Below, piece by piece: positions 784 to 19,891 of a stretch of DNA of 32,000 bases; the stretch's first letter is position 1, and every line of letters begins with the position of its first letter. A program made the position numbers and the translations under genes. This stretch comes from Pyrodictium delaneyi (lineage in GTDB: Archaea; Thermoproteota; Thermoprotei_A; Sulfolobales; Pyrodictiaceae): positions 1,890,001-1,922,000 of the forward strand of contig NZ_CP013011.1 of assembly GCF_001412615.1 (NCBI RefSeq), read 5' to 3'. The notes beneath the pieces were generated by a model. The model was not told the DNA's origin. It ran no database searches and saw only the letters and a program-made list of their open reading frames with translations.

Positions 784-790
784 CCAGAGG

Positions 791-1027: not shown

Positions 1028-1034
1028 CCGCGCG

Positions 1035-1208: not shown

Positions 1209-1219
1209 GGTGACGGGCC

Positions 1220-2099: not shown

Positions 2100-2144
2100 C
2101 TATACTTTGACCTCTAGGCTGGCTATACCCTCGGCGGGCTATAC
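2100..2144 (+). repeat. CTATAC triplet array 1 (hexamers at 2100, 2123, 2139; spacing 23 and 16 bp)
   Basis: GGCTATAC occurs three times, in or adjacent to the 2091..2163 gap. Confidence 0.6.
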
Positions 2145-2820: not shown

Positions 2821-2835
2821 GGCTGTGGGGCTCCG
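2811..2835 (+). promoter_or_regulatory. Intercistronic element copy A (variant TCCGCCC..GGGGC), 25 nt before GTG 2836
   Basis: The sequence is TCCGCCCTAAGGCTGTGGGGCTCCG. Confidence 0.4.
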
Positions 2836-3144: not shown

Positions 3145-3159
3145 ACCCGGGTTTATTGT

Positions 3160-3185
3160 TCGCCCTGGCTGGGCGGAGAAGAGGT
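3160..3185 (+). promoter_or_regulatory. Intercistronic element copy B, 26 nt before ATG 3186
   Basis: The sequence is TCGCCC-TGGCT-GGGCGGAGAAGAGGT. CGCCC and GGGCG are complementary. Confidence 0.6.
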
Positions 3186-3674: not shown

Positions 3675-3680
3675 GAACCG
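3648..3680 (+). promoter_or_regulatory. Intercistronic element copy C, 33 nt before GTG 3681
   Basis: The sequence is TCGCCCC-AGACT-GGGCGGAAGAGGTGAGAACCG. It is nearly identical in plan to copy B. Confidence 0.55.
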
Positions 3681-4463: not shown

Positions 4464-4477
4464 GAGCGTTGAAGGGG

Positions 4478-5071: not shown

Positions 5072-5081
5072 CCCACTTTTT

Positions 5082-5106
5082 TCGCCCCCACGCTGCGGGG
5101 GCAACG
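5082..5106 (+). promoter_or_regulatory. Intercistronic element copy D, 25 nt before GTG 5107
   Basis: A T6 tract is followed by TCGCCCCC-ACGCTGC-GGGGGCAACG. The stem is 6 bp. Confidence 0.6.
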
Positions 5107-6126
5107 GTGGCTCGCCAGCTTATACTGCTGGCACTTCTCATCCCACTACTCGCGGCTGCAGCCGCGGCTGCAGACATCAACATCTGGTACAGCTGTGACA
5201 GTAGCGGCTTGTACATAAGCATAAGCAGTGATGTACCGTTTACGTACACTGTGATGCACGATGGTAATGTCATTGACTCGGGGCAATCCAGTAGCACATA
5301 CGCAATAACGGTGACTATGCCTGGTACATACGAGGTCGAGGCATATCCAACGGGTAGCAATACGGGGAAATGGGCTGCAATAAGCTATGACGGCGCAACA
5401 TGCTCGTGTAGTGGTGCGTGCAGCGGAAGCGGGGGCGGTGGTGGAAGCGGCGGGGGCGGTTGGGGCGGAAGCATAGGCATCGACTGCAGCGGCTGGTGCA
5501 ACAACTGCCAGCTACCCCCAGGACTCACATGGATATGCGATCTAGTCTGCAGCCTATGCAGGATAATCAACGGCATGAAAGCAGCAATAGAAGCAATCGC
5601 GAACTTCTTCGATGGGCTCCTCGGAGCGATCCACAGCGTCGGACAGAGGATAATAGATGGTATAAGCGCTGTCGGAAGCTTCTTTGCCGGCATCGGGGAC
5701 GCTGTGATAGGCTTCTTCTCGAGCGTGGCGAGCAGGGTAACAGGCTTTGTCGATGCTTTGAGCAGCTTCTTTGGCAGCTTGGCAGACGCTGTATACAGTT
5801 TCTTCAAGGGATGGTTCGACTTGATAACCGCGCCGTTCCGCGCTATAATGGACAGGTTGGGCGGGGGCAGCGGCGGGGCAGGGGTGAAAAGTGCCGGGGG
5901 GATGACGTGGAGACAATACTTGTTCATGCTCGGCGTCGCATTGATTGTGGGTGGCGCTTTCGCGGGTGGGAGAGCGAAGATAATCTCTCTGGCAGGCGCG
6001 CTAATAGTCGCATACATAATGTTCACGGACCGCCAGTTCATAGAGGGGATAGTGAAGTCGCCGTACCTGGTCATAGCTGCTGGTGCATTCCTGCTAGTCT
6101 ACGCGGCGCTGAGGATGAGAGAATGA
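5107..6126 (+). CDS. Secreted Cys-rich protein with a Gly linker, 11-residue-periodic FF amphipathic repeat region and C-terminal TM segments. Candidate virion or envelope protein
   Basis: MARQLILLALLIPLLAAAAAAA looks like a signal peptide. There are 9 Cys between residues 99 and 151. GSGGGGGSGGGGWGG is a Gly linker. FF occurs at residues 192, 203, (214), 221 and 232. Two or three TM segments lie at the C-terminus. Confidence 0.7.
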   Translation: MARQLILLALLIPLLAAAAAAADINIWYSCDSSGLYISISSDVPFTYTVMHDGNVIDSGQSSSTYAITVTMPGTYEVEAYPTGSNTGKWAAISYDGATCSCSGACSGSGGGGGSGGGGWGGSIGIDCSGWCNNCQLPPGLTWICDLVCSLCRIINGMKAAIEAIANFFDGLLGAIHSVGQRIIDGISAVGSFFAGIGDAVIGFFSSVASRVTGFVDALSSFFGSLADAVYSFFKGWFDLITAPFRAIMDRLGGGSGGAGVKSAGGMTWRQYLFMLGVALIVGGAFAGGRAKIISLAGALIVAYIMFTDRQFIEGIVKSPYLVIAAGAFLLVYAALRMRE

Positions 6127-6425
6127 GCTGGGAAGCATGGATAGAAGAGCTGAAACAATGGACAACTATGCAGTGGGCGCTGTTCTGGCTAGGAGCAGCA
6201 ATGATAGCCTATGGCCTGAAGAGCCACCCGAGGATATCGCAGTGGGGCGCGGCGCTCTTCTTGGCCGCGTTTTTCTGGCCCCTACTCCGCCAGGTGCACG
6301 CCTACACGTTGCGGCTCAGCGGCGACCCGGTGACAGCGGCTATAGCGACTGTCGCCGCGATCTTTGTCGGCCCTAGGATACTGTTGGAGCTGGTGAAGGC
6401 TGCGCTACGGAGCAGGTCGCCCTAG
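6123..6425 (+). CDS. Small membrane protein (about 100 aa, 3 TM)
   Basis: ATG 6123 overlaps the upstream stop (ATGA). It is the only sensible part of the 335-aa alternate-frame ORF 5418..6425. Confidence 0.55.
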   Translation: MSWEAWIEELKQWTTMQWALFWLGAAMIAYGLKSHPRISQWGAALFLAAFFWPLLRQVHAYTLRLSGDPVTAAIATVAAIFVGPRILLELVKAALRSRSP

Positions 6426-6441
6426 GGGGCGGAGAGTAGGG
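6417..6441 (+). promoter_or_regulatory. Intercistronic element copy E, 25 nt before ATG 6442
   Basis: The sequence is TCGCCC-TAGG-GGGCGGAGAGTAGGG. Confidence 0.6.
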
Positions 6442-6693
6442 ATGGTTCTCAGGCTGAAGCAAAGCGGGGTTGTGGACGGGTTTGATCTGGAAGAGCTAGA
6501 GGAGATAGTGGCTAGCGCGGCGGAGAAGGCTGTCGAGAAAGCTATCCGCAGAAGGGGGGACACGCTGGCATACGCGCAGAGAGTCCTGCAGGTCTACCAG
6601 TTCTTCGAGTCGAATGTGGGGGATAAGCAGGTCGCGCTTGAGCTCACCCGTATAGTCTTCGTCTCCGAGAAGATGGGTGAGGGAGATGAGTAG
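6442..6693 (+). CDS. Hypothetical acidic protein (83 aa)
   Basis: ATG-start ORF, with intercistronic motif copy E 25 nt upstream. Confidence 0.55.
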   Translation: MVLRLKQSGVVDGFDLEELEEIVASAAEKAVEKAIRRRGDTLAYAQRVLQVYQFFESNVGDKQVALELTRIVFVSEKMGEGDE

Positions 6694-7216
6694 CCTGCCC
6701 GATGAGCTCGAGAAGCTGAGCAACTCTATGATGCGGCTCTTCCAGCGGCCCTTCCGCCGCATAGACCGGGCCACGGAGACCCTGCTCCGCAGGGACATAG
6801 GGAGAAGCATAGCGAGGAGAATAGAAGGGCTCGGGGCCAGAGGAGTCCGCGCTCTAAGACTCGCGATAGAGAGGTTCGAGAAGGCGAGGAGCGAGAGGGC
6901 GCGCAGGAAGGCCTACGAGGACGTATTAAGAGCTCTCTATGGCAGGAAGGGCTCCAGGGTTCTCCGAAAAGCCATAGAGGCTGGCATATTGAGCGAGGAA
7001 GAGGTCGTGGAGCTGGCGAAGAGGCGGCTCCGCCGGAAGGCTGCTAGGATTCGCCCAGCAAGGCGGGAGAGACGCCGTGGCCGGGAGAGGAAGAACACTA
7101 GGCCCAAGATAGTAGCGGCATACGAGTTCCGGGAATGCTGGCGGGAATGTGGGCACCCCCGGCGGAACCGGCAGTGCTGGAGCCGCTGCATGAAGAGGGC
7201 GTGGAGCGACGTCTAG
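6677..7216 (+). CDS. Highly basic Arg-rich protein with a C-terminal CxxxC..H..CxxxC motif. Nucleic-acid-binding candidate
   Basis: 179-aa ORF with runs such as RRLRRKAARIRPARRERRRGRERK. The C-terminus is ECWRECGHPRRNRQCWSRC. Confidence 0.6.
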   Translation: MREMSSLPDELEKLSNSMMRLFQRPFRRIDRATETLLRRDIGRSIARRIEGLGARGVRALRLAIERFEKARSERARRKAYEDVLRALYGRKGSRVLRKAIEAGILSEEEVVELAKRRLRRKAARIRPARRERRRGRERKNTRPKIVAAYEFRECWRECGHPRRNRQCWSRCMKRAWSDV

Positions 7217-7218
7217 GC

Positions 7219-7244
7219 TCGCCCTCTCCGGCGGAGAGCCCGGG
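7219..7244 (+). promoter_or_regulatory. Intercistronic element copy F, 26 nt before ATG 7245
   Basis: The sequence is TCGCCCTCTCC-GGCGGAGAGCCCGGG. A CTCTCC/GGAGAG hairpin is also possible. Confidence 0.55.
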
Positions 7245-7547
7245 ATGCCGCGGAAGCGGGGGAAGAGGCGTAATAGGAACAAGTACCTAGGCAAGGGCTG
7301 CCAGAGCCCGCCATGCGTTCCCGACACCGGCAGACCCGGCCTCGATAATTTACACGAGGTAGAGAAGATAGCGAAGAGGATACTGCAGGACGCACGGCGG
7401 GGCAGGATAAGCAAGAAGACGGCGCATGGCCGGTTCCTGCTGCTCTATCGCCTAGTCTCCGGCAAGGATAGGGATTTCCGCGGCGCGAAGGCCCGGAGAG
7501 CCATAGCGATAGTGAAGAAGTACTGGGGGAAGCTCCGCAGGCTCTAG
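7245..7547 (+). CDS. Highly basic small protein (100 aa)
   Basis: MPRKRGKRRNRNK N-terminus. Motif copy F lies 26 nt upstream. Confidence 0.6.
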   Translation: MPRKRGKRRNRNKYLGKGCQSPPCVPDTGRPGLDNLHEVEKIAKRILQDARRGRISKKTAHGRFLLLYRLVSGKDRDFRGAKARRAIAIVKKYWGKLRRL

Positions 7548-7557
7548 CCCCTCTTTT

Positions 7558-7584
7558 TCGCCCCTCATACCCTCGGGGCGGGAC
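7558..7584 (+). promoter_or_regulatory. Intercistronic element copy G, 27 nt before TTG 7585
   Basis: A T5 tract is followed by TCGCCCC-TCATACCCTC-GGGGCGGGAC. The stem is 6 bp. Confidence 0.6.
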
Positions 7585-8559
7585 TTGACAGGGAAGCCTC
7601 TAACTCTAGCCCTCGCTATTCTCACACTACATTTTATACTATATACTGTGCCCGCGTACGCAGCCTCGAGTGGCCCCTACCTCTACCATGACCAGGAGTA
7701 CCTTGTAGTGGCTTACTACCGGTTCGGTAACCGTATCGCAATGGCGCAGAACAACAGCAAGGTCTTCAGCCCGGTCACTATAGAGGTGTTCAGCAAGACT
7801 GGTAGGCCTGTTAGCTTCGTAGTGGGAGAGCGGAAGTTCTCGCTCCTGGCGGGGTTCGGAGAGCCGGCCCGTCACGTGCTCGAGGTGCCGCCCAACCAGC
7901 ATGTGTGCATACAAGTGGTCCTGGAAGGCTCTGCGAAGAGGTTCTGCTTCTACGGCCTCGCCAGGGAGCGGGCGGTAGAGGAGTACGTGCAGATGACGGT
8001 GAAGGAGCTCGCAGCTCTGGTAACACGTGTACGGGCCGAGACGCTCGCGGCGGCGCTCGCCGGGATACTGGCTGGTGCCGGTTTGGCTTGGCTAGTCAAG
8101 ACGAGGCTGGTGCTTCTTGACGCTCTGAACCCTGTTAGCCTCGCGGCTGGGCTCATAGCCTTGGCCGCTATGCCGAGGTACTGGTGGCTCAGCATCCCAA
8201 TGCTCCTAGGCCTCTTTGCCGGCTACTGGTTGGCCCCCAGCCCGCCCACGGTAGCGCTGGTGAAACCCGACTTCAGCAATAGGCGTCTCAAGGTGTTGCT
8301 GCTCCCGGTTTACTACACGAGCGATGGAAGGCTCGCGGCGGCGCTGCAGGACTTCAAAGCGACTCTCGGGAGACTCCGGGGCAGCCACGTCTATGTGGAG
8401 AATACTGTGACGGGAGAAGGACTGCCCCTCTCAGGGTGGAGCCTAGATATCATAGACGAGAAGGGCAGGAGCAGCAGCTACGAGATGCTCCTTGTCCGCA
8501 GGATACGCTTGAAGCGTAGAAGGGTGAGAGGAGATGCTCTGGGGGAGAAGGAAGAGTAG
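7585..8559 (+). CDS. Secreted/membrane protein: signal peptide, beta-rich ectodomain, central TM cluster, basic C-terminus
   Basis: TTG start. MTGKPLTLALAILTLHFILYTVPAYA looks like a signal peptide. Motif copy G lies 27 nt upstream. Confidence 0.6.
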   Translation: MTGKPLTLALAILTLHFILYTVPAYAASSGPYLYHDQEYLVVAYYRFGNRIAMAQNNSKVFSPVTIEVFSKTGRPVSFVVGERKFSLLAGFGEPARHVLEVPPNQHVCIQVVLEGSAKRFCFYGLARERAVEEYVQMTVKELAALVTRVRAETLAAALAGILAGAGLAWLVKTRLVLLDALNPVSLAAGLIALAAMPRYWWLSIPMLLGLFAGYWLAPSPPTVALVKPDFSNRRLKVLLLPVYYTSDGRLAAALQDFKATLGRLRGSHVYVENTVTGEGLPLSGWSLDIIDEKGRSSSYEMLLVRRIRLKRRRVRGDALGEKEE

Positions 8560-8863
8560 ACCTCGAGTAGAGTACGAGTACGTGCTAGAGGTAGAGCCGT
8601 TGGTTAGCGCTGAAGAGAATGTCTTCGAATATCTGGCAGCTCCCTACGAGAAGTTTGCCGAGGTTCTCGCGGAGAATATACGGTTGAAGTGGGCCCTGAC
8701 GGCGGGGAAGCTACTAGCCTACAAGAGGGCTCATGAGATTGCACGTAGACGCATAACGTGGCTGGCCCGGAACATTCTCGCCCCACCCCGGCAGCCGCCG
8801 GGATCGCCCCTACGGCCCGGGGCGAGGGATGGCGAAGCGGAGAGGAAGGAAGAGGAAGCGTAG
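8534..8863 (+). CDS. Hypothetical protein (109 aa)
   Basis: ATG start after GAGAGGAG. It overlaps both neighbours. Confidence 0.5.
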   Translation: MLWGRRKSRPRVEYEYVLEVEPLVSAEENVFEYLAAPYEKFAEVLAENIRLKWALTAGKLLAYKRAHEIARRRITWLARNILAPPRQPPGSPLRPGARDGEAERKEEEA

Positions 8864-9344
8864 CAACCCACGGCTCCGGTACAAGAAGAGGTACGTGAAG
8901 CACAGGCGGCTCGAAGAAGAGGCGGAGCAAGTCTCGAGGGCTAGTGCTGAGCTGGGAGAGTACGTGGTCAAGTGGCTTGACGAGGCGCTGGATGCTCTGA
9001 GGCGGGGAGCCAGGAAGAAAGCGCAGAAGCTTATACGCCGCATCCTTAGGCGCGGCCAGGCCTCGATGCTCGGCAAGAGAAGGGGCCGGAGAGGCCGAAC
9101 AGTGTTTACAGACCACCTAGTGGTGAACAGCAGGGGCCGGGTCAAGCATTACGGCATACACGGGGTAAAGGGCTGGAACCCGGAGAGCCCCGAGGAAGTC
9201 CAGTTCAAGAACAAGCGCGGCGAAGACCTAGAATACGAGGAGATAGGCGAAGTAGCAGTAAAGCCCGCTAGGCGCAAAATCAAGCGTACCCAGCGCTGGA
9301 AAAGAGCCGGCGGAAAGGACAAGTCTAATAAAGGACGCAAATAG
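8829..9344 (+). CDS. Highly basic protein (171 aa, Lys/Arg-rich)
   Basis: MAKRRGRKRKRSNPRLRYKKRYVKHRR N-terminus and a basic C-terminus. Confidence 0.6.
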   Translation: MAKRRGRKRKRSNPRLRYKKRYVKHRRLEEEAEQVSRASAELGEYVVKWLDEALDALRRGARKKAQKLIRRILRRGQASMLGKRRGRRGRTVFTDHLVVNSRGRVKHYGIHGVKGWNPESPEEVQFKNKRGEDLEYEEIGEVAVKPARRKIKRTQRWKRAGGKDKSNKGRK

Positions 9345-9362
9345 TTTCCAATAAGCTGGAGA

Positions 9363-9430
9363 GCCCCCGCGTGCGATGTACGCGGGAGCCGCGGTAAGCC
9401 GCGGGGGCGGATGATTCCACCCCCTTTATA
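9363..9430 (+). promoter_or_regulatory. GC-rich nested palindromes followed by a TTTATA box, in the largest non-coding gap of the element
   Basis: GCCCCCGCG (9363-71) pairs with CGCGGGGGC (9400-08). An alternative fold is CCCGCG-N9-CGCGGG plus CCGCGG-TAAG-CCGCGG. GGGGG (9403-07) can pair with CCCCC (9420-24). TTTATA is at 9425-30. Confidence 0.5.
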
Positions 9431-9493
9431 GGACGCTTGGCCGAAACTAACCTGTGTAGAATCCTACTCCGCCCCTACTGTTGGGGGCTATGT

Positions 9494-9898
9494 GTGAGCC
9501 TCACGTCTAGGGAGCTACTGCACGAGATCGAGAAGCTGCTTGTCTCCCGGCTCCGCAGGCTGGATCCGCAGCTAGGCTCATTGGCCCTTAATGCCTATGC
9601 CCGGGAGATCGTGTGGTGGTATAAGCAGTACCAGCTTATGGGCTTCCAGCTGGAGTGGAATGCTAAGAGGCAGCGCTTCAAATGCCTAGAAAACGATGAG
9701 GGCTGCCGCCTGGCCGAGGAGCATCTCAACTACCTTCTCCTCATGGGCCGCGCCGAGACCGTGCCTCGGCTGTCGACACTGGATCAGCTCTTGCTGAGCG
9801 TGCCTGTGGGCGAAGAGAGCGAGAAGAGGAAGACATTGAGGATAGGGCCTAGGAGAAGACATGAGGACAAAGAGGAAGAAGTGATCGAGGAGTTCTAG
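9494..9898 (+). CDS. Hypothetical protein (ORF track 9437..9898; likely start GTG 9494)
   Basis: TTTATA at 9425-9430 would place a TSS near 9452. GGGGG lies 7 nt before GTG 9494. Confidence 0.5.
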   Translation: MSLTSRELLHEIEKLLVSRLRRLDPQLGSLALNAYAREIVWWYKQYQLMGFQLEWNAKRQRFKCLENDEGCRLAEEHLNYLLLMGRAETVPRLSTLDQLLLSVPVGEESEKRKTLRIGPRRRHEDKEEEVIEEF

Positions 9899-9901
9899 AG
9901 T

Positions 9902-9925
9902 TCGCCCCCTGACGTAGGGGTGGCT
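9902..9925 (+). promoter_or_regulatory. Intercistronic element copy H, 24 nt before ATG 9926
   Basis: The sequence is TCGCCCCCT-GACGT-AGGGGTGGCT. Confidence 0.55.
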
Positions 9926-10921
9926 ATGCCTAGGCTACCGATAAAGTTCATGCCCGAGGCTTTCAGCGACTATGTCTACAAGCTCCTCATCGAGGGGCCG
10001 CTGCGCGAGGTTGAGAAGGGCTCTCGGGCTATGAGGAAGCTATACTTTGTTGCGAGCCAGGGCGGCGGAAAAAGTTGGTCCATGGCTTCTACCGCAGAGT
10101 GGCTCTGGGACGAACTGGAAGCGAGGGGGCTGAGCGTTGACGTGAAAATGCTGGACGTGGATAGGCACCTGAGGCCCAAATACAGGGTTTCATGTATAGA
10201 GGAGCTCGTTGAGGCTATGAAAAACACTGCCGCGGATGTCTTCATAGGGATTGTCGGAGAGGCAGCAGCAGATCTATCCAACATGGTCATATCGGGTGAG
10301 GAGTACAAGGCGAACGTGCTCTTCGCCAGGCACTTCTTCAGGGCAAGACACTTCTCCAACGCCCGGATAGTATACCTAATGTTCGCTTCACAGAAGACAA
10401 AGCGTCTCATGGGAGATATAAGGGATCTTGCCGACCTAGTAGTAGTCAAAGCATTGCCTCGCTGGGAAGCGAACCTGATAATCGAGGCGTTGAACATAAC
10501 CGATAGGGCTGTTATAGAGGAGCTCATGAAGCTGTACGATTTGGCGTTCATATACGGAGATAAGAGCCGGGGCATAGGAGTTGCAAACGATAAGGCCGGG
10601 CTGATCCGGTTCGATCCACCCAGCCGCATCATAGACCCAAGCTACGAGGCACCGCCAGAGGAGAGAGAAGAGAAGGCCAAGCAGAGCATGAAGCGCTTAG
10701 GAAAGAGAAAGATTCTCGACTCTGTAGAGCGTAGGTGCGTGACGCGGAACTGCAGGGTGACTATCCCGGCTGAATGGCTCGAGGAGCTGCCCCGGGAGAA
10801 TGGGGCCTGGCAGTTCACGCTTGAGCGTGTCGTTCTTGAGGACGGCTCGGCGGGGTTTCTACTCCGGCCCCGGGTTCAGCAGAAGAGGCGGGGGCTGCTG
10901 GGCGGGCTGCTCCCCTTCTAG
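9926..10921 (+). CDS. P-loop NTPase with a C-terminal AbrB/SpoVT-like domain
   Basis: Walker A is ASQGGGKS (about nt 10061-10075). A Walker-B-like VFIGIVGE follows. The C-terminus CRVTIPAEWLEELPRENGAWQFTLERVVLEDGSAGFLLRP matches the AbrB swapped-hairpin pattern. ATG 9926 follows AGGGGTGG; GTG 9920 is an alternative start. Confidence 0.65.
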   Translation: MPRLPIKFMPEAFSDYVYKLLIEGPLREVEKGSRAMRKLYFVASQGGGKSWSMASTAEWLWDELEARGLSVDVKMLDVDRHLRPKYRVSCIEELVEAMKNTAADVFIGIVGEAAADLSNMVISGEEYKANVLFARHFFRARHFSNARIVYLMFASQKTKRLMGDIRDLADLVVVKALPRWEANLIIEALNITDRAVIEELMKLYDLAFIYGDKSRGIGVANDKAGLIRFDPPSRIIDPSYEAPPEEREEKAKQSMKRLGKRKILDSVERRCVTRNCRVTIPAEWLEELPRENGAWQFTLERVVLEDGSAGFLLRPRVQQKRRGLLGGLLPF

Positions 10922-10923
10922 AT

Positions 10924-10949
10924 TCGCCCAGTAGTAGCGGAGAGGCGGG
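10924..10949 (+). promoter_or_regulatory. Intercistronic element copy I, 26 nt before TTG 10950
   Basis: The sequence is TCGCCC-AGTAGTA-GCGGAGAGGCGGG. Confidence 0.55.
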
Positions 10950-11612
10950 TTGCAGAGGAGAACCCTACTACTAGGCCTGGGCGGGGCCGGAGCAGGCGCT
11001 GCTGCCGCCGTGCTAGTAGCACTACTACTATTCCAGCCTGCCGCTGAAACAGCCATGGCCGCGCTGGAGATACTGCCGGTGCTCAAGGTATACAAGAACG
11101 GCGAGCTGGTCTACATGAAGGTTGGTGACCCGCCGCTCGAGAACTGGGCGAAGGTGCTCGCCGCAATACTGACGAATCAGGGGCAGACGCTGATAACGAG
11201 CGACGGCGGTGGCGTTACACTAAACCACGGGGATGGCCTAGACGCGCTCGTTGGTAGATCCGATAACGGCGCCCTAACGGCGCCGCCGGTGGTTGTCGCG
11301 GGCCAGCTTAGTAGTGAACTGACATACAATACTTACTGGTTCGACGAGGCCTACACAGCGCCGATAACAACACTAGGCACCGGCTGGCAAGAGAACATGG
11401 GAGAGTACGTGATAAAGATCAAGGGCACAGTGACATTTGACTCCAACACTACCATAAACGTTGTGGGTCTTGCGATAAGGCCTGTGGTAGACACCTACCA
11501 GAGAACCGTACTTGTGTTTGCGGACAAGTTGCCAGAGCCTATAGATGTTAGCAGCACAGATAGCTTGACCATAGTCTATGAGATCCACATTAAGTGGCCT
11601 AGCACGGGCTAA
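10950..11612 (+). CDS. Secreted beta-rich protein with a Tat-like signal (MQRRTLLLGLGGAGAGAAAA)
   Basis: TTG start with motif copy I 26 nt upstream. A twin-Arg is followed by an h-region and an A-x-A-like site. Confidence 0.55.
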   Translation: MQRRTLLLGLGGAGAGAAAAVLVALLLFQPAAETAMAALEILPVLKVYKNGELVYMKVGDPPLENWAKVLAAILTNQGQTLITSDGGGVTLNHGDGLDALVGRSDNGALTAPPVVVAGQLSSELTYNTYWFDEAYTAPITTLGTGWQENMGEYVIKIKGTVTFDSNTTINVVGLAIRPVVDTYQRTVLVFADKLPEPIDVSSTDSLTIVYEIHIKWPSTG

Positions 11613-11621
11613 GGGTGAGAA

Positions 11622-12422
11622 GTGTTGAGGCGGGTGGCCCTACTCAGTTTTTCCCTGGCATTCCTCTCGACACTCGCAGTTCTAGCTGCTGCCGCAGAGC
11701 TGGGGCTGAGCGTGTCCAGCGTGTTTGACTGGTTCTACAACGTGACTGTCAGGCTGGGATTCAAAGCCCAGCCTGCGCCAATTGTGGCCTGGGACTACGC
11801 TCTAATGGGAAGCAGCGGGGGCAAGGCAGTAGCTGCGGACGGCTTCAGCTTGGCCTATAATCTGAGTGTTGACGTGAACACGACTGCTGCCAGCCCGGAC
11901 ACAGTGGTTGAAGTCGCCGCGTCCACTCCAACCGTCTCCGTCTACGGGGCGGAGCCCCGGCAGCTCTTCGTCGTCTACGCTAACGGGACTATGAGCGCTC
12001 TAGGCGGCGGTGGCGGGCAGCAGGTATGTGCATCTCCCAGGGAGTGCGGCCTCGAGCTTGGCTGGGGCCGGGTCTACTACACCGACGCGATGGGCAACCC
12101 GGCTAGCCCCGCCGCGGGGAAGCAGGTGCTGATCCACTTCCCGATACACGCCAGCCCCCAGGGCAGGTATGGTAAGGCGCTGGTGCTGGTAGAGGTTCAC
12201 AGGTATGATCCCAGCTACGGCACGGTGATAATCGATGAGAACATGGCGATAGGCGTGAGCTGGGCCCTCGTAGGCGACGGAATAGAGGTGACACTACTCT
12301 GGTGGCCCAAGGATCCCGGCACATATCTCATAAGGGCCTACGTCTGGAACGGGTTCCCGGGCCAGGTAGAGGAGTGGGAGAGCTACATCGAACCCCTAGA
12401 GCTGGTAGTGAATATCCCCTAG
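11622..12422 (+). CDS. Secreted protein (266 aa) with a Sec-type signal peptide
   Basis: GTG start after GGGTGAG. MLRRVALLSFSLAFLSTLAVLAAAAE looks like a signal peptide. A T5 tract follows the stop. Confidence 0.6.
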   Translation: MLRRVALLSFSLAFLSTLAVLAAAAELGLSVSSVFDWFYNVTVRLGFKAQPAPIVAWDYALMGSSGGKAVAADGFSLAYNLSVDVNTTAASPDTVVEVAASTPTVSVYGAEPRQLFVVYANGTMSALGGGGGQQVCASPRECGLELGWGRVYYTDAMGNPASPAAGKQVLIHFPIHASPQGRYGKALVLVEVHRYDPSYGTVIIDENMAIGVSWALVGDGIEVTLLWWPKDPGTYLIRAYVWNGFPGQVEEWESYIEPLELVVNIP

Positions 12423-12434
12423 TTTTTGCCCTGG

Positions 12435-13520
12435 TCAAAACCTAGGCGACGAGCTATCTCTCCCATTATCCTCAGCGAGATAGACCTGGAGCCGCCGCCT
12501 TAGCTCGGGGAGTATCTTCTCGACGTAGGCCTGGTCTGCGCGTAGGACTATCTTGCTGTAGTTGGTGAGGCCGACCACGTTCTCTATCTTGGCGTAGCGG
12601 TTCTGTATTAGCTCGCGGAGCTCCAGGTCTATCTCCAGGTCTTCCATGAGCTGGTAGTGGTGTTTGCGGAGCATCTTGGGCGGTGCCAGGTCTAGGCCAC
12701 TGCGCCTGCGTATATTCCTGACGTAGTAAGATAGGCGGCGCGCCGAGGGCGGCTCGCCATGCCACGCCCTGGCCTCTTCGAAGACCTCGCGGGGGAGCCA
12801 GAGGAACTCGCAGCGCTTCTTGCCGCGGTTGAAGTGCAGCGCCACTCTCACGGCGTCTCCCAGCTCCACGTATCCTGTTTGCTCTAGGCTCCGCTGGTGG
12901 CTTACGGGCTTCAGGCTGGCCGCCGCTCTCACAAGATATTCTGCCTCTTCCGCCCTGGCGCCAGAATAGTACATTATCTTGTAGAGTAGCGCGTAGCCGT
13001 GCTGGCCTGCGGCCTCGAGGTAGTCTATGGTGAACCGTATCTTTTCGGCCTCTACCGCGGGGGCCTTGGCCTTGCGCAGGCTCCTCTGGCCCCGCACTAG
13101 GGCGTAGATGCGCTCGCGCTCCTCTAGCGTTATGCTGCCGGTCTCCCAGAGGAAGCTGGCTATCTTGCGTATGAGGTTGGCGTACCACTTGCTCCTCTTA
13201 GCCAGCTCGGTTATAGAGTCGGGGGTTAAGACCTGGGGGAGCTTCGAGTAATAGCGCATATAGTCCTCGAGGGTTCTAGCCTCGACTTTACCGCTGAGCC
13301 AGTCCCTAAACCTGTTAGCATCCGGTAGAAGGATTTTCCAGGCCTGGGCTGAAGGCTCCGAGCCTTCCCTGGAGAAAATCTCGTTTCGATTCCTGTCTTG
13401 GCTCGGGACTCCTAAGCCGGTGGTCGGGGGTTCAAATCCCCCCGGGCCCGCCACTCTATCACCACCATTCTTCACGTACGCTATGAAGCCACTGGCACAG
13501 TCTAACCTAGAATTATACAC
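12435..13520 (-). CDS. int: SSV-type tyrosine integrase, Int(C) portion fused across attR. The drawn 361-aa ORF is probably chimeric: the N-terminal ~23 codons come from host flank and ~15 codons from antisense tRNA
   Basis: Recombinase motifs are YYSGARAEEA (Arg), LRKHHYQLM (H/R box) and GLTNYSK (Tyr). The frame reads antisense through 13409..13453. There is no Met between the tRNA segment and the catalytic domain. Confidence 0.8.
   Translation of the reverse strand: MYNSRLDCASGFIAYVKNGGDRVAGPGGFEPPTTGLGVPSQDRNRNEIFSREGSEPSAQAWKILLPDANRFRDWLSGKVEARTLEDYMRYYSKLPQVLTPDSITELAKRSKWYANLIRKIASFLWETGSITLEERERIYALVRGQRSLRKAKAPAVEAEKIRFTIDYLEAAGQHGYALLYKIMYYSGARAEEAEYLVRAAASLKPVSHQRSLEQTGYVELGDAVRVALHFNRGKKRCEFLWLPREVFEEARAWHGEPPSARRLSYYVRNIRRRSGLDLAPPKMLRKHHYQLMEDLEIDLELRELIQNRYAKIENVVGLTNYSKIVLRADQAYVEKILPELRRRLQVYLAEDNGRDSSSPRF
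13409..13453 (+). tRNA. 3' half of tRNA-Arg (anticodon CCT), positions 32-76 including encoded CCA. Attachment site copy (attR), not a complete gene
   Basis: The segments are: loop CTCCTAA (U33, A37), stem GCCGG, variable TGGTC, T-arm GGGGG-TTCAAAT-CCCCC, acceptor CGGGCCC, discriminator G, CCA. No complementary GGGCCCG acceptor strand, D-arm or CCGGC anticodon-stem strand lies upstream. Confidence 0.8.
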
Positions 13521-13593
13521 GAGTATCTCGCCGAGGACAGCAGCATATATCTGGACACCATACCCTTATAGGTTACTACGGTGGCCTCTAGCC

Positions 13594-14121
13594 TTGAAAC
13601 TAGACACTGCAAAGATCCTGGCAGTCGCCGGCCTCATCCTCTCCATGCTCTCGTTCATACACGCCACGCTGGGCCTCGTAGGACTAGTCCTATACCTTGC
13701 CGGGATGTATCATATAGGCCAACACTACAACAAGCGAGAAGTGTTCCGCTACGCCCTAGTCTCCACCGTAGGCTTCACCGCAGCCCTCATAGCCATAGCA
13801 CTGCTCGTCGGCCTAGGAGCCCTCCTCGGAACCCTCGCAGCCGGGCCCATGGGGGTCGGCGCGAGCATAGCAGCCGGCCTAGCCCTAGCCTACATAGCCA
13901 TACTGCTCATGGGCAAGTACAAGCGCGACCTAATGAGGACACTCGCGCCCCACAGCAGCAGCATAGCTGAATGGGCCGCCCGCCTCTACTGGTACGGGGC
14001 AATACTCGCCATACTCCTGGTAGGCCTAGCACTACTACTCATAGCCCAGGTACTCGAAGCAATAGTACTAGCGACACTTAGGCCCACCAGGACACCAGCC
14101 GGAAGCTCGGGCACGCTCTAG
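13594..14121 (+). CDS. Polytopic membrane protein. The N-terminus MKLDTAKILAVAGLILSML resembles DUF996-type archaeal membrane proteins (from memory)
   Basis: In-frame TTG 13594 lies about 25-29 nt downstream of TTATAG (13565-70). ORF-track start 13420 and ATG 13483 would include tRNA/att sequence. Confidence 0.55.
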   Translation: MKLDTAKILAVAGLILSMLSFIHATLGLVGLVLYLAGMYHIGQHYNKREVFRYALVSTVGFTAALIAIALLVGLGALLGTLAAGPMGVGASIAAGLALAYIAILLMGKYKRDLMRTLAPHSSSIAEWAARLYWYGAILAILLVGLALLLIAQVLEAIVLATLRPTRTPAGSSGTL

Positions 14122-14209
14122 TAGCTGTCCTGTACCTGCTCTAGCGGCTAACCGGCACTATTCTAGAAGCGAAGCAGTAATTGAGACAGCCGCGGTCCGT
14201 ACGCTGGTC

Positions 14210-14623
14210 CTAGGATTTGGGCTTCACGGCTACTAGGAGTATTGTACGCCCCCACTTCTTAACAGTCTTAAGCTCCCTCGCCCTGGAGTATGCTGCCGCT
14301 CTCTTCCCGTTATCCCATACAAAGAGTATGCCAGTACGCCAGTCGGTACCCTTCATGTAGCTCATGAGCTGTTCTACACCACGATCTACTACAGATGCAG
14401 ACGATGTTAGCTTAACCTCTATGGGGACCTCCACCCTGCCTCGCGGTTTCCTCACCACCAGATCCGGCCTGGCACGGCCACCAGTATAGTTGACATAGTA
14501 CCTCTTAGAGGCTAGGTAGAGGTAGAGGAGACCATGCAGGCAGTTTTCGTTCTCGGGCTCGATGGGGACTAGGCGAGGAAACTCTCCTCCAAGAAGCGAG
14601 GCGAGTTCCTCAGCAATGCCCAT
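14210..14623 (-). CDS. PD-(D/E)XK nuclease-fold protein (137 aa)
   Basis: The motifs are GRARPDLVV (Asp) and VPIEVKL (E-x-K), followed by QLMSY. This is typical of a restriction-endonuclease-like core. Confidence 0.6.
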   Translation of the reverse strand: MGIAEELASLLGGEFPRLVPIEPENENCLHGLLYLYLASKRYYVNYTGGRARPDLVVRKPRGRVEVPIEVKLTSSASVVDRGVEQLMSYMKGTDWRTGILFVWDNGKRAAAYSRARELKTVKKWGRTILLVAVKPKS

Positions 14624-14896
14624 GTGCTCACCTGTTTACACTAGAACTCCTCCACTCTATTCTATATACATATACGCATCTATACTAGATATACTCGATG
14701 TGCTACAGTAATACCACATTAAAATGATCATGTCTGCCTCCTTAGCTAGAGATAAGAAGCTACAACGCTAGCTCGATGAACACCTAAATAATGGTAATAC
14801 ATCCTTGTTGTGATGTTGCCATATTACTACATGGGCTCCACTTAGTGTATTCTAGGCTTGTATATATAGAGCTGGGTCCTGGGTATACTTGTTCTG

Positions 14897-15688
14897 GTGC
14901 TGTGTGTGGCTGGCTCACTCCGGCTGGAGCTGGACGGCGAGGCTGCTAGGGCTCTCGAGAGCCTAGCAAGGGCGACAGGAAGGCCGGCCAGAGAGGTTGT
15001 CGAGAGGCTGATCTACGCGGCGAGTGGTATCGTGGAGCCGGTGCCGCCTAGCAGTCTTGCCCCTGGGCAGCTGAGCCTCAGCATGCTTGTACGGCTAGTT
15101 TCCTCCTCGGCGCTGCTGGCCGAGTTCATAGACTACGCTGTGTTTAGGGGGTTCCTGGGCCTCCTGGAGACTATGAGCGTGGAGAATGTGGTGTGCTACG
15201 TCCCAAGCAAGGAGCTACAGGAAAAGGGCTGCAGTGCTACCAACGGCGCGTCCATAGAGCTCGTGGCCTCGGGAGACGAGGCCCCCTTTAGCAGCCTTAG
15301 CCTCGGCGTGGTGTTCCCGGCTGACGGCCACTCGCACGCCCAAGTGGAGGTCCAGGGCGACGTCATCGTAGAGGTGCCGGAGGGCGTTGGCCTGGAGGAG
15401 GCTGTGAAAATTGCTAGAAGGGTTGTAGGCTATGCCCGGAGGACCCGGCTCTACCGGGAGCTCGAAGACTACCTAGCGAGTGACGGCGACATGTACTACT
15501 ACAGCGTGGACATCAACGTAGAGGGCGAGGAGCCCCTGGACAGGGACGGTGGCTACGTGGCTGTGGCCGTGGAGGTTGAGGCTGAGGGTCTCCCGGGGCT
15601 TCTTCTCCCGTTTGACCTGGCCCCGGTGCTGGGGCTCGCCCGCTATATCAGGGTGAGGCTCGGGGAGAAGCTGGCGCGCAGAGGCTAG
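14897..15688 (+). CDS. Hypothetical protein with an N-terminal RHH-like motif (LRLELDGEAARALESLARATGRPAREVVERLIY) and an acidic C-terminal domain
   Basis: 263-aa GTG-start ORF, with T-rich tracts downstream (15735-15752). Confidence 0.55.
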   Translation: MLCVAGSLRLELDGEAARALESLARATGRPAREVVERLIYAASGIVEPVPPSSLAPGQLSLSMLVRLVSSSALLAEFIDYAVFRGFLGLLETMSVENVVCYVPSKELQEKGCSATNGASIELVASGDEAPFSSLSLGVVFPADGHSHAQVEVQGDVIVEVPEGVGLEEAVKIARRVVGYARRTRLYRELEDYLASDGDMYYYSVDINVEGEEPLDRDGGYVAVAVEVEAEGLPGLLLPFDLAPVLGLARYIRVRLGEKLARRG

Positions 15689-15875: not shown

Positions 15876-16760
15876 GTGGCTGGGCTCGAGGACAGTCTAC
15901 GGGGCTTCCTGGTGGAGTTGATCCGTACTGCTGTTACGCGGCTTCCCCGTGACGTGTATGAGGCGTTGGAGAGGGCGCTGGAGGCTGAGGAGAACCCTGT
16001 GGCCCGGCGGCAGCTGGAGGCTATGCTGGAGAATGTGAGGCTCGCTGTCCGGCTTGGGAGGCCGTTGTGCCAGGATACGGGTACTCCGGTCTTCTACCTC
16101 CGGGTGGGTGACGGGTTTCCGCTCCGTAGCAGGCTCTACGAGGTCGTCGCGGAGGCTGTACGGGAGGCTACCCGGGTTGTGCCGCTGCGGCCTAACGCTG
16201 TGGACCCGTTGAGGGGCAGGAATAGCGGCGATAATACTGGCCGCTATGTGCCCTGGGTGGAGGTCGAGCTTGTCCCCGGCGACGGGCTGGAGGCTGTGTT
16301 CGTGGCTAAGGGTGGTGGGAGTGAGGCGCCTACGCGGCTAGTCATGGCGCTGCCGCTGCGGGGCTGGGAGGCGGTCAGGGAGGCTGTGCTCCGGGCGGTG
16401 GCGGAGGCTGGGCCTAAGCCGTGCCCGCCATTCGTGGTGGGCGTCGGCATTGCTGCTGGGGGTGACCAGGCTCTCTCCCTGGCTAAGCGTGCCGCGTTGT
16501 TGAGGCCTCTTGGGTCGCGGCACCCTGACCCAGAGGCTGCGCGGCTGGAGGAGGAGCTCCTGGAGGAGGTTAACCGGCTGGGGTTAGGGCCCCATGGCTT
16601 CGGGGGCCGGGTGACCGCCCTGGACCTCCACATCGAGTACGGGTTCCGCCACCCCGCGACCTACGCTGTGGGGGTAGTGTTCAGCTGCTGGGCGCTCCGC
16701 CGCGCTAGTGGCGTGTTCGAGCCGGACGGCTCATGGAGGATAACCTCGGAGCACATCTAG
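15876..16760 (+). CDS. Fumarate hydratase class I (Fe-S hydro-lyase), alpha subunit
   Basis: The motifs are LCQDTGTP, VAKGGGSE and GIGIGG-like VGVGIAAGG. Length is about 290 aa. Confidence 0.85.
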   Translation: MAGLEDSLRGFLVELIRTAVTRLPRDVYEALERALEAEENPVARRQLEAMLENVRLAVRLGRPLCQDTGTPVFYLRVGDGFPLRSRLYEVVAEAVREATRVVPLRPNAVDPLRGRNSGDNTGRYVPWVEVELVPGDGLEAVFVAKGGGSEAPTRLVMALPLRGWEAVREAVLRAVAEAGPKPCPPFVVGVGIAAGGDQALSLAKRAALLRPLGSRHPDPEAARLEEELLEEVNRLGLGPHGFGGRVTALDLHIEYGFRHPATYAVGVVFSCWALRRASGVFEPDGSWRITSEHI

Positions 16761-17407
16761 CCCTTGTAGGGGGCCTGGTGGCCGTGTCCCGTGTCTATCG
16801 TCTCTCGACCCCGCTTGGGGAGGACGAGGTCCGCCGTCTACGGGCTGGTGACGTGGTCTACCTCTCGGGGCTCGTGTTCACGGCGCGTGATGCGGCGCAC
16901 CGCAGGATAATCGAGGTCCTGGAGTCTGGTGGGGAGCTGCCCTTCCCGACCCGGGGCCTCGCAGTCTACCACGCGGGCCCGGTGGCCCGGAGGCGCGACG
17001 ACGGTGGATGGGAGATACTCGCGGCCGGGCCCACTACGAGCGCGCGTATGGAGCCGGTTGAGCCGGATTTCATCAGGCTTACCGGCGTCCGGATGGTGAT
17101 AGGCAAGGGTGGTATGGGCCGGGGGACTGCGGAGGCTTGCCGCCGCTACGGCGCTGTCTACGCCGTCTTCACTGGGGGCGCCGCTGTGCTGGCGGCGAGG
17201 GCTGTGGAGAGGGTTGAGGCTGTCTACTGGCTCGAGGAGCTGGGCATGGCTGAGGCTGTCTGGCTGCTCCGTGTCCGCGACTTCGGCCCCCTAACGGTGG
17301 TGATCGACTCGACGGGGCGTAACCTCTACGACGAGGTCATGACCCGGGTCCGGGAGAGGCTAGAGGAGCTACTGGGAGGCGCCGGGGGCGGTGGTCGAGG
17401 TAGTTGA
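16733..17407 (+). CDS. Fumarate hydratase class I, beta subunit (true start possibly GTG 16778)
   Basis: The motifs are [32 protein letters not shown] and IGKGGM. GGGGG lies 7 nt before GTG 16778. Confidence 0.85.
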
Positions 17408-19139
17408 GCACGATGTGCTCGTGATAGGCTCGGGGCTCGCGGGGCTACGGACTGCCCTGGAGATCAAGCGGAGCCCTGGCGGCGACAGGGTAGACGTGGC
17501 TATCGTCAGCAAGGTCCAGCTGATGAGGAGTCATAGCGTGGCCGCGGAGGGCGGCACCGCCGCCGTACTCTACCCCGAGGAGGGCGACAGCGTCGCGCTC
17601 CACGCCTGGGACACTGTTAAGGGCAGCGACTTCCTCGCCGACCAGGACGCTGTCTGGACTATGGTGAAGCTGGCGCCGGAGGAGATACGGCTGCTAGAGC
17701 GCTGGGGTATGCCCTGGAGCCGCCGGCCCGACGGGAGGATAGCCCAGCGGCCCTTCGGCGGCCACAGCTTCCCGAGAGCCTGCTACGCGGCCGACAAGAC
17801 CGGGTTCTTCGAGATGCAGACCCTCTACGGCAGGCTCCAGGCCTTCGACGGCTGGACACGGTACGACGAGGTCTACGTGACCAGCATCATCGTCGAGGAC
17901 GGCTGGTTCCGCGGGGCCACGGCCCTGGACCTCCGGAGCGGCGAGCTACTCGTGTTCAGGGCGAGGGCGGGCGTAATCGCGACCGGGGGCGCGGGCCGGA
18001 TCTACAAGTTCACGACCTACAGCCACTCCAGCACCGGCGATGGGCTCGCGATGGCTCTCCGGGAGGGGATCCCCCTCAAGGACATGGAGTTCATACAGTT
18101 CCACCCCACGGGGCTGGTGCCGAGCGGGATACTGATCACTGAGGGCGCCCGTGGCGAGGGCGGCTACCTCGTCAACGCCAAGGGAGAACGGTTCATGAAG
18201 CGCTACGCGCCGGAGCGGATGGAGCTAGCTCCCCGCGACGTGGTCTCGAGGGCCATCATGACCGAGATAATGGAGGGCCGGGGGCTACGCGACGAGTTCA
18301 CCGGGCTAGACTACGTGCTCCTCGACCTCCGCCACCTAGGCGAGGAGCGGATAAGCGAGCGGCTCCCCGCGGTCAGGGAGATAGCAATCAAGCACGCCGG
18401 GGTAGACCCCGTTGAGGAGCCTATCCCGGTGCGCCCTGTAGCCCACTACACTATGGGCGGGATACACACGGACAGCTACTACCGCGTCCTCACAGCCGAG
18501 GGCCGCTGGGTACGCGGCCTGTGGGCCGCGGGTGAGGCTGCCTCTGCGAGCATCCACGGTGCTAACCGGCTAGGCTCGAACAGCACCATAGAGTGCCTTG
18601 TCAGCGGGAGGCTTGTGGGCCGCCAAGTGCTCCGCTTCCTGGAGAAGCACCCCGAGGCCCTCAGGGGGCCTAGCAGGGAGAGGGTGGAGAGGGAGGAGAA
18701 GTGTGTCTACGACGAGTTGCTGAAGCGGGAGAGCGGGGAGAGCGTCTACGAGGTCCGCGAGCGGCTACAGGAGACGATGGACCGCTACGTATACGTCTTC
18801 CGCGACAGGAGTGGCCTCGAGGAGGCAGTGCGCCGGATAAAGAGGCTACGCGGGGCTATGAAGAACGTCTATCCCCATGACAAGAGCAGGGTGTACAACA
18901 CCGACCTAGTGGCCGTGCTCGAGACCGCTAACATGCTTGACGTGGCGCTGGCCGTGGCTGTCTCGGCGCTCGCCCGGACCGAGAGCAGGGGCGCCCACTA
19001 CCGGGTTGACTACCCCCGCCGCGACGACGAGAACTGGCTGAAACACACGCTGGCCGTGATGAACGCGAACGGTGAGATCGAGCTGGGCTACACCCCGGTC
19101 CGGATAACCACCTGGAAGCCCGTAGAGAGGAGGTACTAG
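17391..19139 (+). CDS. sdhA: Succinate dehydrogenase / fumarate reductase flavoprotein subunit
   Basis: The motifs are [15 protein letters not shown] fold, [18 protein letters not shown] and [10 protein letters not shown]. Confidence 0.9.
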
Positions 19140-19162
19140 ATCAGCCTAGAGGGGATGCAGGA

Positions 19163-19558
19163 GTGGCTAGACTACGTGTCCCGAACAACCCGGAGAGGCT
19201 CGCATACCGGCTGCACCGGGTCACCGGGCTCATACTGCTAGCCTACTTCATGGCCCACGCTGTGTCTATGGGCGGGATGCTGGCTGGCTACACCTGGCTA
19301 GCAGAGCCCGCGGCCGCCATAGTCTCGTCAAAGACCCTCCGCTTCGCCGTAGCCGCTGCAGCAGCGTTCCACGGGCTCAACGGCCTGAGGCTCATACTGG
19401 TAGAGGCTCTAGGACTCGGCCTAGGCAAGCCGGGGATACCCCGGCCACCCTACATATCCACAAGTCTACGCTCGGCACAACGACTGCTACTCCACTTTGT
19501 TGTCGTCCTCGCAGGCCTAGCCGTCGCCCTAGCAGCCTACCTACTCATAGCATGGTGA
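19163..19558 (+). CDS. sdhC: Succinate dehydrogenase membrane anchor (cytochrome b-like) subunit C
   Basis: Three TM segments with HRVTG and FHGLNGLRLILVE motifs. It lies between sdhA and sdhB. Confidence 0.7.
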   Translation: MARLRVPNNPERLAYRLHRVTGLILLAYFMAHAVSMGGMLAGYTWLAEPAAAIVSSKTLRFAVAAAAAFHGLNGLRLILVEALGLGLGKPGIPRPPYISTSLRSAQRLLLHFVVVLAGLAVALAAYLLIAW

Positions 19559-19564
19559 TGGGCC

Positions 19565-19885
19565 GTGGCGTCGTGGGGTTGGAGGCTTGAGGCGCTGCGG
19601 CAGCTGCTCAGCTATGTTGCTGCAGCCTTGCTGGCAGTAGCTCTACCCCTCCACCTCCTAGAACACGTTCCTGTTGACTGGCTCCGACAGCCCCCGAGGC
19701 CCTGGGTCCTCTGGACAGTCCTCCTGGCCGCGGGGTTTCATGGGCTCAACGGGCTCCGCAGTATACTGCTCGAACGTGTCCACGGTAGACGGGGCCGGGC
19801 AGTTGTTGAGGCGTTGTTCTGGATCCTCCTAGCCCTCGTTGTGGCTGTTGGCGCCACAGGACTAGCCAGGACAATAGGGTGGTGA
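19565..19885 (+). CDS. sdhD: Succinate dehydrogenase membrane anchor subunit D
   Basis: Three TM segments and FHGLNGLRSILLE, paralogous to the preceding ORF. Confidence 0.65.
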   Translation: MASWGWRLEALRQLLSYVAAALLAVALPLHLLEHVPVDWLRQPPRPWVLWTVLLAAGFHGLNGLRSILLERVHGRRGRAVVEALFWILLALVVAVGATGLARTIGW

Positions 19886-19891
19886 AGGACC

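Follow-up and report, generated by a model that had tools for sequence, protein, structure and literature searches.

The 32,000-nucleotide stretch of the Pyrodictium delaneyi chromosome analysed here (NZ_CP013011.1, positions 1,890,001 to 1,922,000; hereafter the window, numbered from its first letter) holds at 12435-13520 what is very probably one junction of an integrated mobile element: a right attachment site (attR) joined to Int(C), the C-terminal part of a split integrase, belonging to an element of at least 13.4 kb that was inserted into a tRNA-Arg(CCT) gene by its own SSV-type integrase. The mobile element is probably a provirus. An initial annotation of this DNA had proposed that the integrase gene (int) was split by its own attachment site (att), leaving Int(C) at attR, and this was confirmed, with Int(C) at 12435-13408, a 45-nucleotide (nt) tRNA fragment next to it and no integrase sequence beyond. 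The mechanism is already known for hyperthermophilic archaea (SSV1, pTN3, pT26-2 and Aeropyrum globular virus 1, AGV1), and the current understanding of it is unchanged by the present finding; the element and its host from the Pyrodictiaceae, a family among the most hyperthermophilic cultured archaea, are new instances. Recognition that the public 339-amino-acid (aa) 'integrase' annotation is the C-terminal stump of a split gene fixes one mobile-element boundary in the P. delaneyi chromosome.

The Integrase Gene and Its Break Point

The open reading frame (ORF) at 12435-13520 on the minus strand encodes 361 aa and, as the initial annotation had stated, runs through the tRNA segment, where it reads ..VAGPGGFEPPTTGLGV... 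It was matched by PF16795 (Phage_integr_3) over aa 156-334, with an E-value of 1.4e-9 and 38.5 bits against a cutoff of 27, and by the PHROGs family phrog_5127 ('integrase') with E=1.2e-14, the latter only across profile positions 122-352 of 355, which indicates a protein without the N-terminal third of the family. The profile built from alignment A1, in which the ORF is joined by its nine homologues, matched the SSV1 Int catalytic domains 3uxu, 3vcf and 4dks of the PDB with E-values of about 2-4e-4, and comparison by hhalign gave 97.6% and E=3.3e-12 for full-length SSV1 Int and 99.7% and E=5.5e-26 over 326 columns for the AGV1 integrase. The signature R...KxxR...Y of the SSV1 type, as opposed to the R...YxxR...Y of the pNOB8 type (PMC8371274), was found as R189, K282-M-L-R285 and Y321, residues that are invariant or nearly so in A1 and that pair by hhalign with R211, KYFR and Y314 of SSV1. 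The earlier assignment to the SSV type is thus upheld by both family matches, by the alignments to the SSV1 and AGV1 integrases and by the catalytic residues, and the ORF is, to judge from its sequence, an SSV-type ('suicidal', type I) tyrosine integrase without its conserved N-terminal domain. The public protein 'integrase [Pyrodictium delaneyi]' (P0001, 339 aa) is 100% identical to the ORF and starts at the GTG at 13454-13452; among the other homologues, the aa identity to the ORF was 72-75% for P0002 and P0003, the Int(C) proteins of the metagenome loci L039 and L040, and 50% for P0004.

The element-derived part of the ORF, Int(C), occupies 12435-13408 on the minus strand (stop codon at 12435-12437) and comprises the linker, the core-binding region and the catalytic domain. 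Beyond the tRNA fragment, 22 codons at 13454-13520 on the minus strand (MYNSRLDCASGFIAYVKNGGDR) are fused in frame to Int(C) and are not integrase sequence. The first start codon of the ORF is a GTG at 13520, 67 nt past the end of the tRNA segment, as had been noted at the outset; the accompanying statement that the frame finds a start only there did not hold, because the second in-frame GTG at 13454-13452 lies nearer and straddles the boundary between att and flank. These two GTG codons, in the flank-derived stretch and at its boundary, are the sole start codons for Int(C), and the frame is closed upstream by TAA at 13566-13568. The flank-derived GTG codons may permit expression of Int(C), and the fused flank codons would merely provide fortuitous starts. 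No counterpart of the first 22 residues was found in any homologue, and none carries the first ~23 residues, whose conservation the initial annotation had thought worth examining; intact homologues have the Int(N) domain in that place.

Three homologues are longer at the N-terminus, namely P0004 (421 aa), P0005 (430 aa) and P0009 (393 aa), the last of which begins with a residue other than methionine, so that its gene call is probably truncated. In all three, the peptide AGPGGFEPPTTGLG, which is the att 45-mer translated antisense by the integrase frame, lies in the interior, preceded by 74 residues in P0004 and 104 in P0005. Correspondingly, the tRNA-Arg(CCT) 3' half was found antisense inside the unsplit ORF at codons 74-89 of P0004 (locus L037) and codons 104-118 of P0005 (locus L038), both metagenome sequences on contigs that carry other element-type genes; the window att is identical to the L037 attachment site (attP) at 46/46 positions and the L038 copy has one mismatch. 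The segment that precedes att in such proteins is an Int(N) domain of about 70-100 aa with the consensus ..RLKRxNGKLYLVKEW..KRTKSIGRVEWLExLADEY.., which recurs in P0004, P0010-P0013, the Int(N) ORF of locus L040 and the AGV1 integrase, and no sequence resembling it was found anywhere in the window. An attP inside int, as postulated initially, is therefore observed in the intact relatives, and for the window element it is deduced from the frame that reads through the tRNA segment. In the alignment to SSV1 that the initial annotation had suggested, V23 of the window ORF pairs by hhalign with residue 63 of SSV1 (..DPPGFEPGTSGSG..); since the SSV1 record places its 44-nt integration site at int nt 191-234, the break point is homologous to the classical one.

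The public record of a 339-aa 'integrase', the in-frame GTG starts and a length near those of SSV1 Int (335 aa) and AGV1 Int (339 aa) could also be taken to mean that the 339- or 361-aa ORF is whole and functional, a classical non-suicidal enzyme with the tRNA-like stretch as an element-end att over the 5' end of its gene. This is very improbable and was rejected, given that the N-terminal domain is absent and that the att peptide is placed differently from SSV1 and AGV1, where it lies at residues 63-80 rather than 2-16, after an N-terminal domain alignable with P0004 and P0010-P0013. The late start of the phrog_5127 alignment and the 22 extra residues without a homologue also argue against it, and the similar length is due to a longer linker and core region, not to a retained N-terminus.

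Two further observations were made on integrases of this family. A metagenome contig (L041, 6211-8742) carries two PF16795 integrase genes, of 428 and 393 aa, back to back on opposite strands. P0009 carries AGPGGFEPPTTGLGGRR, so that its att may also take in part of the anticodon stem's 5' strand.

The tRNA-Arg(CCT) Fragment

The att core, here the attR copy, occupies 13409-13453 on the plus strand and corresponds to tRNA-Arg(CCT) from position 32, in the anticodon loop, through to the 3' CCA. Its letters, CTCCTAA GCCGG TGGTC GGGGG TTCAAAT CCCCC CGGGCCC G CCA, read in order as anticodon loop (with the anticodon CCT), 3' strand of the anticodon stem, variable loop, T-arm, 3' strand of the acceptor stem, discriminator and CCA. 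It is identical at 45/45 positions to the tRNA-Arg(CCT) genes of about 30 related archaea, where it matches nt 34-78 of the intact gene (blastn-short, E=2e-21), which settles the original identification of the segment as a tRNA 3' half. The last 38 nt of att, scanned against one genome per species, gave 36 loci (L001-L036) from Pyrodictiaceae, Acidilobaceae, Aeropyrum and other Thermoproteota, and in 36/36 the matched nucleotides closed a complete tRNA-Arg gene, most of these genes being of the form GGGCCCGTAGCTCAGCCAGGATAGAGCGCCGGC|CTCCTAAGCCGG...CCA. Within the window the 45-mer occurs once with up to three mismatches allowed, and 0/100 shuffles reached it. The base after CCA (C, 13454) is common to the window and the L037 attP, so that the shared stretch may be 46 nt long.

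No complete tRNA was called by ARAGORN in the 32-kb window, a meaningful negative given that the same program called an intact tRNA-Arg(cct) in the control loci L042-L044. Similarly, Rfam gave no match in the window at the gathering threshold, and at a permissive threshold only spurious partial T-arm matches (tmRNA, plastid untranslated regions, mascRNA) and no tRNA call were obtained around att, as is consistent with a tRNA fragment. No stretch similar to the tRNA-Arg 5' half was found on either strand of the whole window; the earlier statement that none lies upstream was accordingly correct, and the DNA upstream of 13409 is integrase coding sequence homologous to that of the relatives.

Among the relatives, several tRNA-Arg(CCT) genes with the identical 3' half have an intron at or beside position 37/38 that varies in sequence and length (L009, L016, L019, L027-L029 and L034), and three loci (L004, L012 and L022) are tRNA-Arg(TCT) genes with introns and the identical 3' 38 nt. 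The occurrence of the same 3' 38 nt in tRNA-Arg(CCT) and tRNA-Arg(TCT) genes means that one att could serve several tRNA-Arg isoacceptor genes.

Thermoproteota include species with split tRNAs and with tRNAs interrupted by introns. The relatives have the introns at 37/38 just described, and a link between SSV-type integration and tRNA disruption has been proposed (PMC3293823). On these grounds the 45 nt might belong to a tRNA-Arg(CCT) that is split or broken by an intron and yet remains in use, its 3' half being joined to a 5' half in trans or across a long intron, with the overlap with the integrase being secondary. The probability of this is minute, since the 5' half is missing from the 32 kb, the fragment begins within the anticodon loop at position 32 rather than at the canonical splice position 37/38, the DNA upstream of it codes for integrase and is conserved as such in the relatives, and the identical segment lies inside the unsplit int of L037 (with one mismatch in that of L038). 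An intron-split or trans-split tRNA was rejected on account of the lacking 5' half, the start at position 32 and the same segment inside intact int genes.

The Complementary Junction in Other Genomes

The left junction (attL), at which Int(N) adjoins the tRNA gene, was sought in other genomes with a probe in which the Int(N) of P0004 was followed by the peptide predicted from continued translation across the tRNA 5' half. It detected ORFs built as 'Int(N)...VAGPGGFEPPTTGLGGRRSILAELRA' (P0011, P0012 and P0014-P0017). In L042 (P0011) and in L043 and L044 (P0016), the Int(N) ORFs overlie an intact tRNA-Arg(cct) on the opposite strand, with host genes beyond; the attL state that had been predicted for the far end of the element exists, therefore, in these other genomes. 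At locus L040, whose integrase shows 72% identity, an intact tRNA-Gly(CCC) is overlapped by an Int(N) ORF, and an att fragment ~6.4 kb away adjoins Int(C).

The 15.6-kb contig of L040 holds three copies of the tRNA-Gly(CCC) 3' part, at 2963-3028, 6843-6908 and 13281-13346, and represents elements integrated in tandem at a single tRNA gene; genes of the PIN/toxin-antitoxin type lie between the att copies.

Integration Model and the State of the Element

In the integration proposed here, the free circular element would carry attP ~70-100 codons into int, as a 45-46-bp copy of the tRNA-Arg(CCT) 3' part antisense to the gene. Recombination of attP with the identical chromosomal tRNA stretch would linearise the element inside int and duplicate the tRNA 3' part, placing Int(N) beside a rebuilt intact tRNA at the far (left) end and Int(C) at the right end, where the duplicated tRNA 3' fragment would separate it from the chromosome. 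By analogy with SSV1 (PMC8371274), strand exchange would probably occur around the anticodon loop or at its border. The partner junction attL/Int(N) would still be present in the P. delaneyi genome. Int(C) fragments of such integrases are reported to be unable to multimerise and to recombine poorly, and excision of SSV2 and TKV4 reportedly relied on an intact related integrase in trans (PMC8371274); by the same analogy, Int(C) alone would be inefficient at excision of the window element, and the intact integrase of a co-resident or superinfecting related element would be required.

Several results weigh against an element integrated in this way, or against calling it a provirus. A second att copy, an intact tRNA-Arg and an Int(N) were all absent from the 32-kb window, so that a two-ended provirus is a prediction only, and loss of the left end or its displacement by a rearrangement is conceivable. 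Searches of PHROGs, Pfam and the phage collection revealed no virion or capsid gene, and the element may accordingly be an integrated plasmid rather than a provirus. On the right side, the flanking genes had no homologues in any tRNA-Arg locus of the relatives within the DNA compared, so that synteny gives no support for 13454 onwards as a native tRNA trailer, a result that is uninformative rather than contradictory. Additionally, the flank at 13454-13480, which the int frame translates as AYVKNGGDR, is similar over its first 17 to 25 nt to the 'PYLKKG' tail of the L037 Int(N) (TACGTGAAGAATGG vs TACCTGAAGAAAGG), with 13/17 in the best 17-nt window, a 9-nt in-frame gap and a shuffle p of about 0.005. 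Likeness of the flank to the Int(N) tails of L040 or L042 was not significant, and the attR flanks of L039 and L040 show none. Such a tail-like flank is not expected of pure host DNA and could be the scar of an earlier insertion at the tRNA, or chance.

The lack of attL and Int(N) from the available 13.4 kb can also be explained if the Int(C)/att junction is real and the left end (attL, Int(N)) was deleted, or separated by rearrangement between related elements, leaving fixed 'captured' DNA. Inversions and tandem arrays between elements with suicidal integrases are documented (PMC8371274), the L040 array with its three att copies is one such arrangement, and the low guanine-plus-cytosine content (GC) right of att and the Int(N)-tail-like flank both hint at earlier events. 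Nevertheless, an orphaned remnant of this kind is considered unlikely: the body is collinear with the metagenome provirus L039 over 17 ORFs with no evident frameshifts, Int(C) retains all catalytic residues, and an end beyond the window is expected in any case. The initial annotation had expected Int(N) and an intact tRNA-Arg immediately to the left of position 1, which is too optimistic; a left end several kb beyond the window is expected for the integrated element, because its gene array continues off the edge and AGV1, the nearest isolated virus, measures 18.2 kb.

Different tRNA Targets in Close Relatives

Whereas the window element lies in tRNA-Arg(CCT), its closest relatives, L039 and L040, occupy tRNA-Gly(CCC). 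The anticodon stem is the same in both tRNAs, and a single base distinguishes their anticodon loops. When the window (13296-13480) was aligned with L039 (5900-6080) and L040 (6840-7020) (alignment A2), the element-side linker DNA beside att was found to be 67-70% identical over about 67 nt between the Arg and Gly types, the reading frames through att and linker differed between the two, and a 1-nt indel restored the frame before the conserved W-K-I. This suggests that the stretch of att and linker is constrained as DNA rather than as protein. The att-coded segment of suicidal integrases has been described as a tolerant Pro/Gly-rich stretch, and these integrases switch tRNA targets (PMC7253208); the frame shift between the Arg and Gly types with conserved linker DNA fits both statements. 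The Arg(CCT)/Gly(CCC) pair of close relatives thereby supplies the current model of target change by suicidal integrases with a clean case from nature.

A more far-reaching proposal is conceivable, with the balance tipped somewhat against it: the element body would be an intact, possibly inducible provirus of an undescribed Pyrodictiaceae virus group distantly linked to AGV1, and its integrase lineage would have been retargeted recently between Arg(CCT) and Gly(CCC), the att cassette being replaced with a change of frame in a stretch constrained as DNA.

The Element Body

Left of att, the element body extends over 1-12422 as a tightly packed array of plus-strand genes with a GC of 0.52-0.62 and positive GC skew, and it runs off the left window edge. 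An ORF is open there at positions 3-183, so the array, and with it the element, reaches at least one gene beyond the window. Many of the body ORFs encode predicted membrane, secreted or very basic proteins, the extremely basic ones lying at 6677-7216, 7245-7547 and 8829-9344. Seventeen body ORFs and the integrase are collinear with L039 across 2836-13520 of the window at 31-81% aa identity, and homologues of w791 and w1389 were found beside the unsplit int of L037.

One mobile-element marker is a plus-strand gene at 1389-1961 for an archaeal-virus nuclease of the SSV1 D-244/AGV1 gp20 family, matched by PF12187 (E=1.6e-6) and phrog_9634 (E=9e-25) and, in tblastn, by the nucleases of AGV1 (2e-15) and SSV1 to SSV5. 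Weak similarity to AGV1 was also found for w2836 (2836-3144; gp10, 45% over 53 aa, 1.6e-6) and w10950 (10950-11612; gp26, 24% over 184 aa, 1.4e-6). Most body ORFs had no family in PHROGs or Pfam, with PHROGs giving the nuclease and the integrase only. The ORF at 9920-10921, which has a P-loop-like motif (GGGKS), had neither a family match nor a protein match in the phage collection, and the homologue search with the leftmost complete ORF (160-783) returned only the self match. The phage collection, SSVs included, gave no DNA match for window 1-14000 (megablast) and no tblastn match for the integrase ORF; neither an att match nor an integrase relative was found among the IMG/VR viral contigs, and metagenome scans for the viral arm together with att gave no match.

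The plus-strand gene at 5107-6126 encodes a Gly-rich protein of 339 aa with an N-terminal signal-like segment, and its aa 153-262 showed weak similarity to phage tape-measure/tail PHROGs (best E=7e-6), probably driven by composition or by coiled-coil or membrane segments.

Comparison with Known Systems

The integrase of SSV1 (D-335) shares with the window ORF the PF16795 domain and the R..KxxR..Y signature, and in SSV1 att is likewise contained within int, some 63-78 codons into the gene and antisense to the tRNA 3' part, where it encodes a Gly/Pro-rich peptide (DPPGFEPGTSGSG in SSV1, AGPGGFEPPTTGLG in the window). SSV1 integrates in a tRNA-Arg gene of Sulfolobus/Saccharolobus. Integration splits its int into Int(N) and Int(C) (PMC8371274), and a D-244-type nuclease is common to both elements. 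The two integrases are, however, only about 24% identical over the aligned region with no tblastn match, their N-terminal domains are of different types, and the host of SSV1 belongs to the Sulfolobales, unlike the Pyrodictiaceae host of the window element. Neither SSV capsid genes (VP1/VP3-type) nor DnaA-like genes were found in the window element, so that the nuclease is the only gene shared with fuselloviruses besides the integrase family. Membership in the Fuselloviridae was rejected on the absence of matches to the phage collection already given and of fusellovirus core genes in PHROGs; 'SSV-type' applies to the integrase only, and the element is not a fusellovirus.

Among isolated viruses, the closest match was given by the integrase gp25 of the unclassified AGV1 (NC_036595), with its Int(N) domain included (..YLVKEWWDP..KSIG..EWLE..). 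The AGV1 int (L047, 10702-11721) has an annotated tRNA antisense inside the gene at codons 73-98, the same geometry as in the window type, and the window element shares with this virus the nuclease (33% identity) and the weak homologues of gp10 and gp26, while most genes are without a match. The AGV1 integrase is only 22% identical, its internal tRNA is a tRNA-Glu annotated at full length, and its gene is episomal and unsplit, in contrast to the integrated, split state in the window. In both AGV1 and L037, int lies downstream of the nuclease on the same strand, whereas the window int is opposite to the gene array; L037 thus combines an attP identical to the window att and an unsplit int with a different gene order. 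L039 and L040 differ from the window in the tRNA-Gly(CCC) target and in the other frame of their att and linker.

The pTN3/TKV4 and pT26-2 families of Thermococcales plasmids and viruses resemble the window element, as far as their descriptions go, in having attP in int, integration at the tRNA 3' end and Int(N)/Int(C) pseudogenes, as well as a tolerant att-coded Pro/Gly-rich segment with switching of the tRNA target (PMC7253208, PMC8371274), of which the window against L039/L040 is an instance. Their hosts belong to another phylum, the Euryarchaeota, and the evidence there is experimental, whereas the window element is known from its sequence alone. Literature searches returned no paper linking Pyrodictium to proviruses or integrases and none describing the element or its relatives. 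Few viruses are, to our knowledge, known for Pyrodictiaceae, and the element, together with its relatives from metagenomes, could open the way to a new group of deep-sea vent viruses.

The Chromosome Side of the Junction

Right of att, a chromosome-side flank at 13483-15688 with a low GC of 0.52-0.56 forms a stretch of about 2.3 kb between att and a host operon. It encodes a DUF996 membrane protein (13483-14121, plus strand), a PD-(D/E)XK/Mrr-like nuclease-fold protein (14210-14623, minus strand), both recognised by Pfam, and a 263-aa ORF of unknown function (14897-15688, plus strand), and could belong to the host or be what is left of an older foreign insertion at an integration hot spot. A promoter and terminator scan near the junction gave nothing with the bacterial models used, which are unsuited to archaea. 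The plus-strand genes at 15876-20782 encode the alpha and beta subunits of fumarate hydratase and subunits of succinate dehydrogenase/fumarate reductase, enzymes of host core metabolism, with Pfam matches to Fumerase (1.3e-88), Fumerase_C (4.8e-47), FAD_binding_2 (3.4e-112), Sdh_cyt and Fer2_3 and a GC of 0.62-0.69. This operon marks unambiguous chromosome right of att, and the att position therefore coincides with the change from element genes to a flank that leads into host core genes.

On the chromosome side of the related provirus L039, a gene for a Piwi-domain protein (prokaryotic Argonaute) and an adjacent 362-aa gene were found at 2531-5019, the nearest gene end lying ~0.9 kb outside its attR, and a further degenerate tRNA-Gly-like fragment was found at ~416-462 of the same locus.

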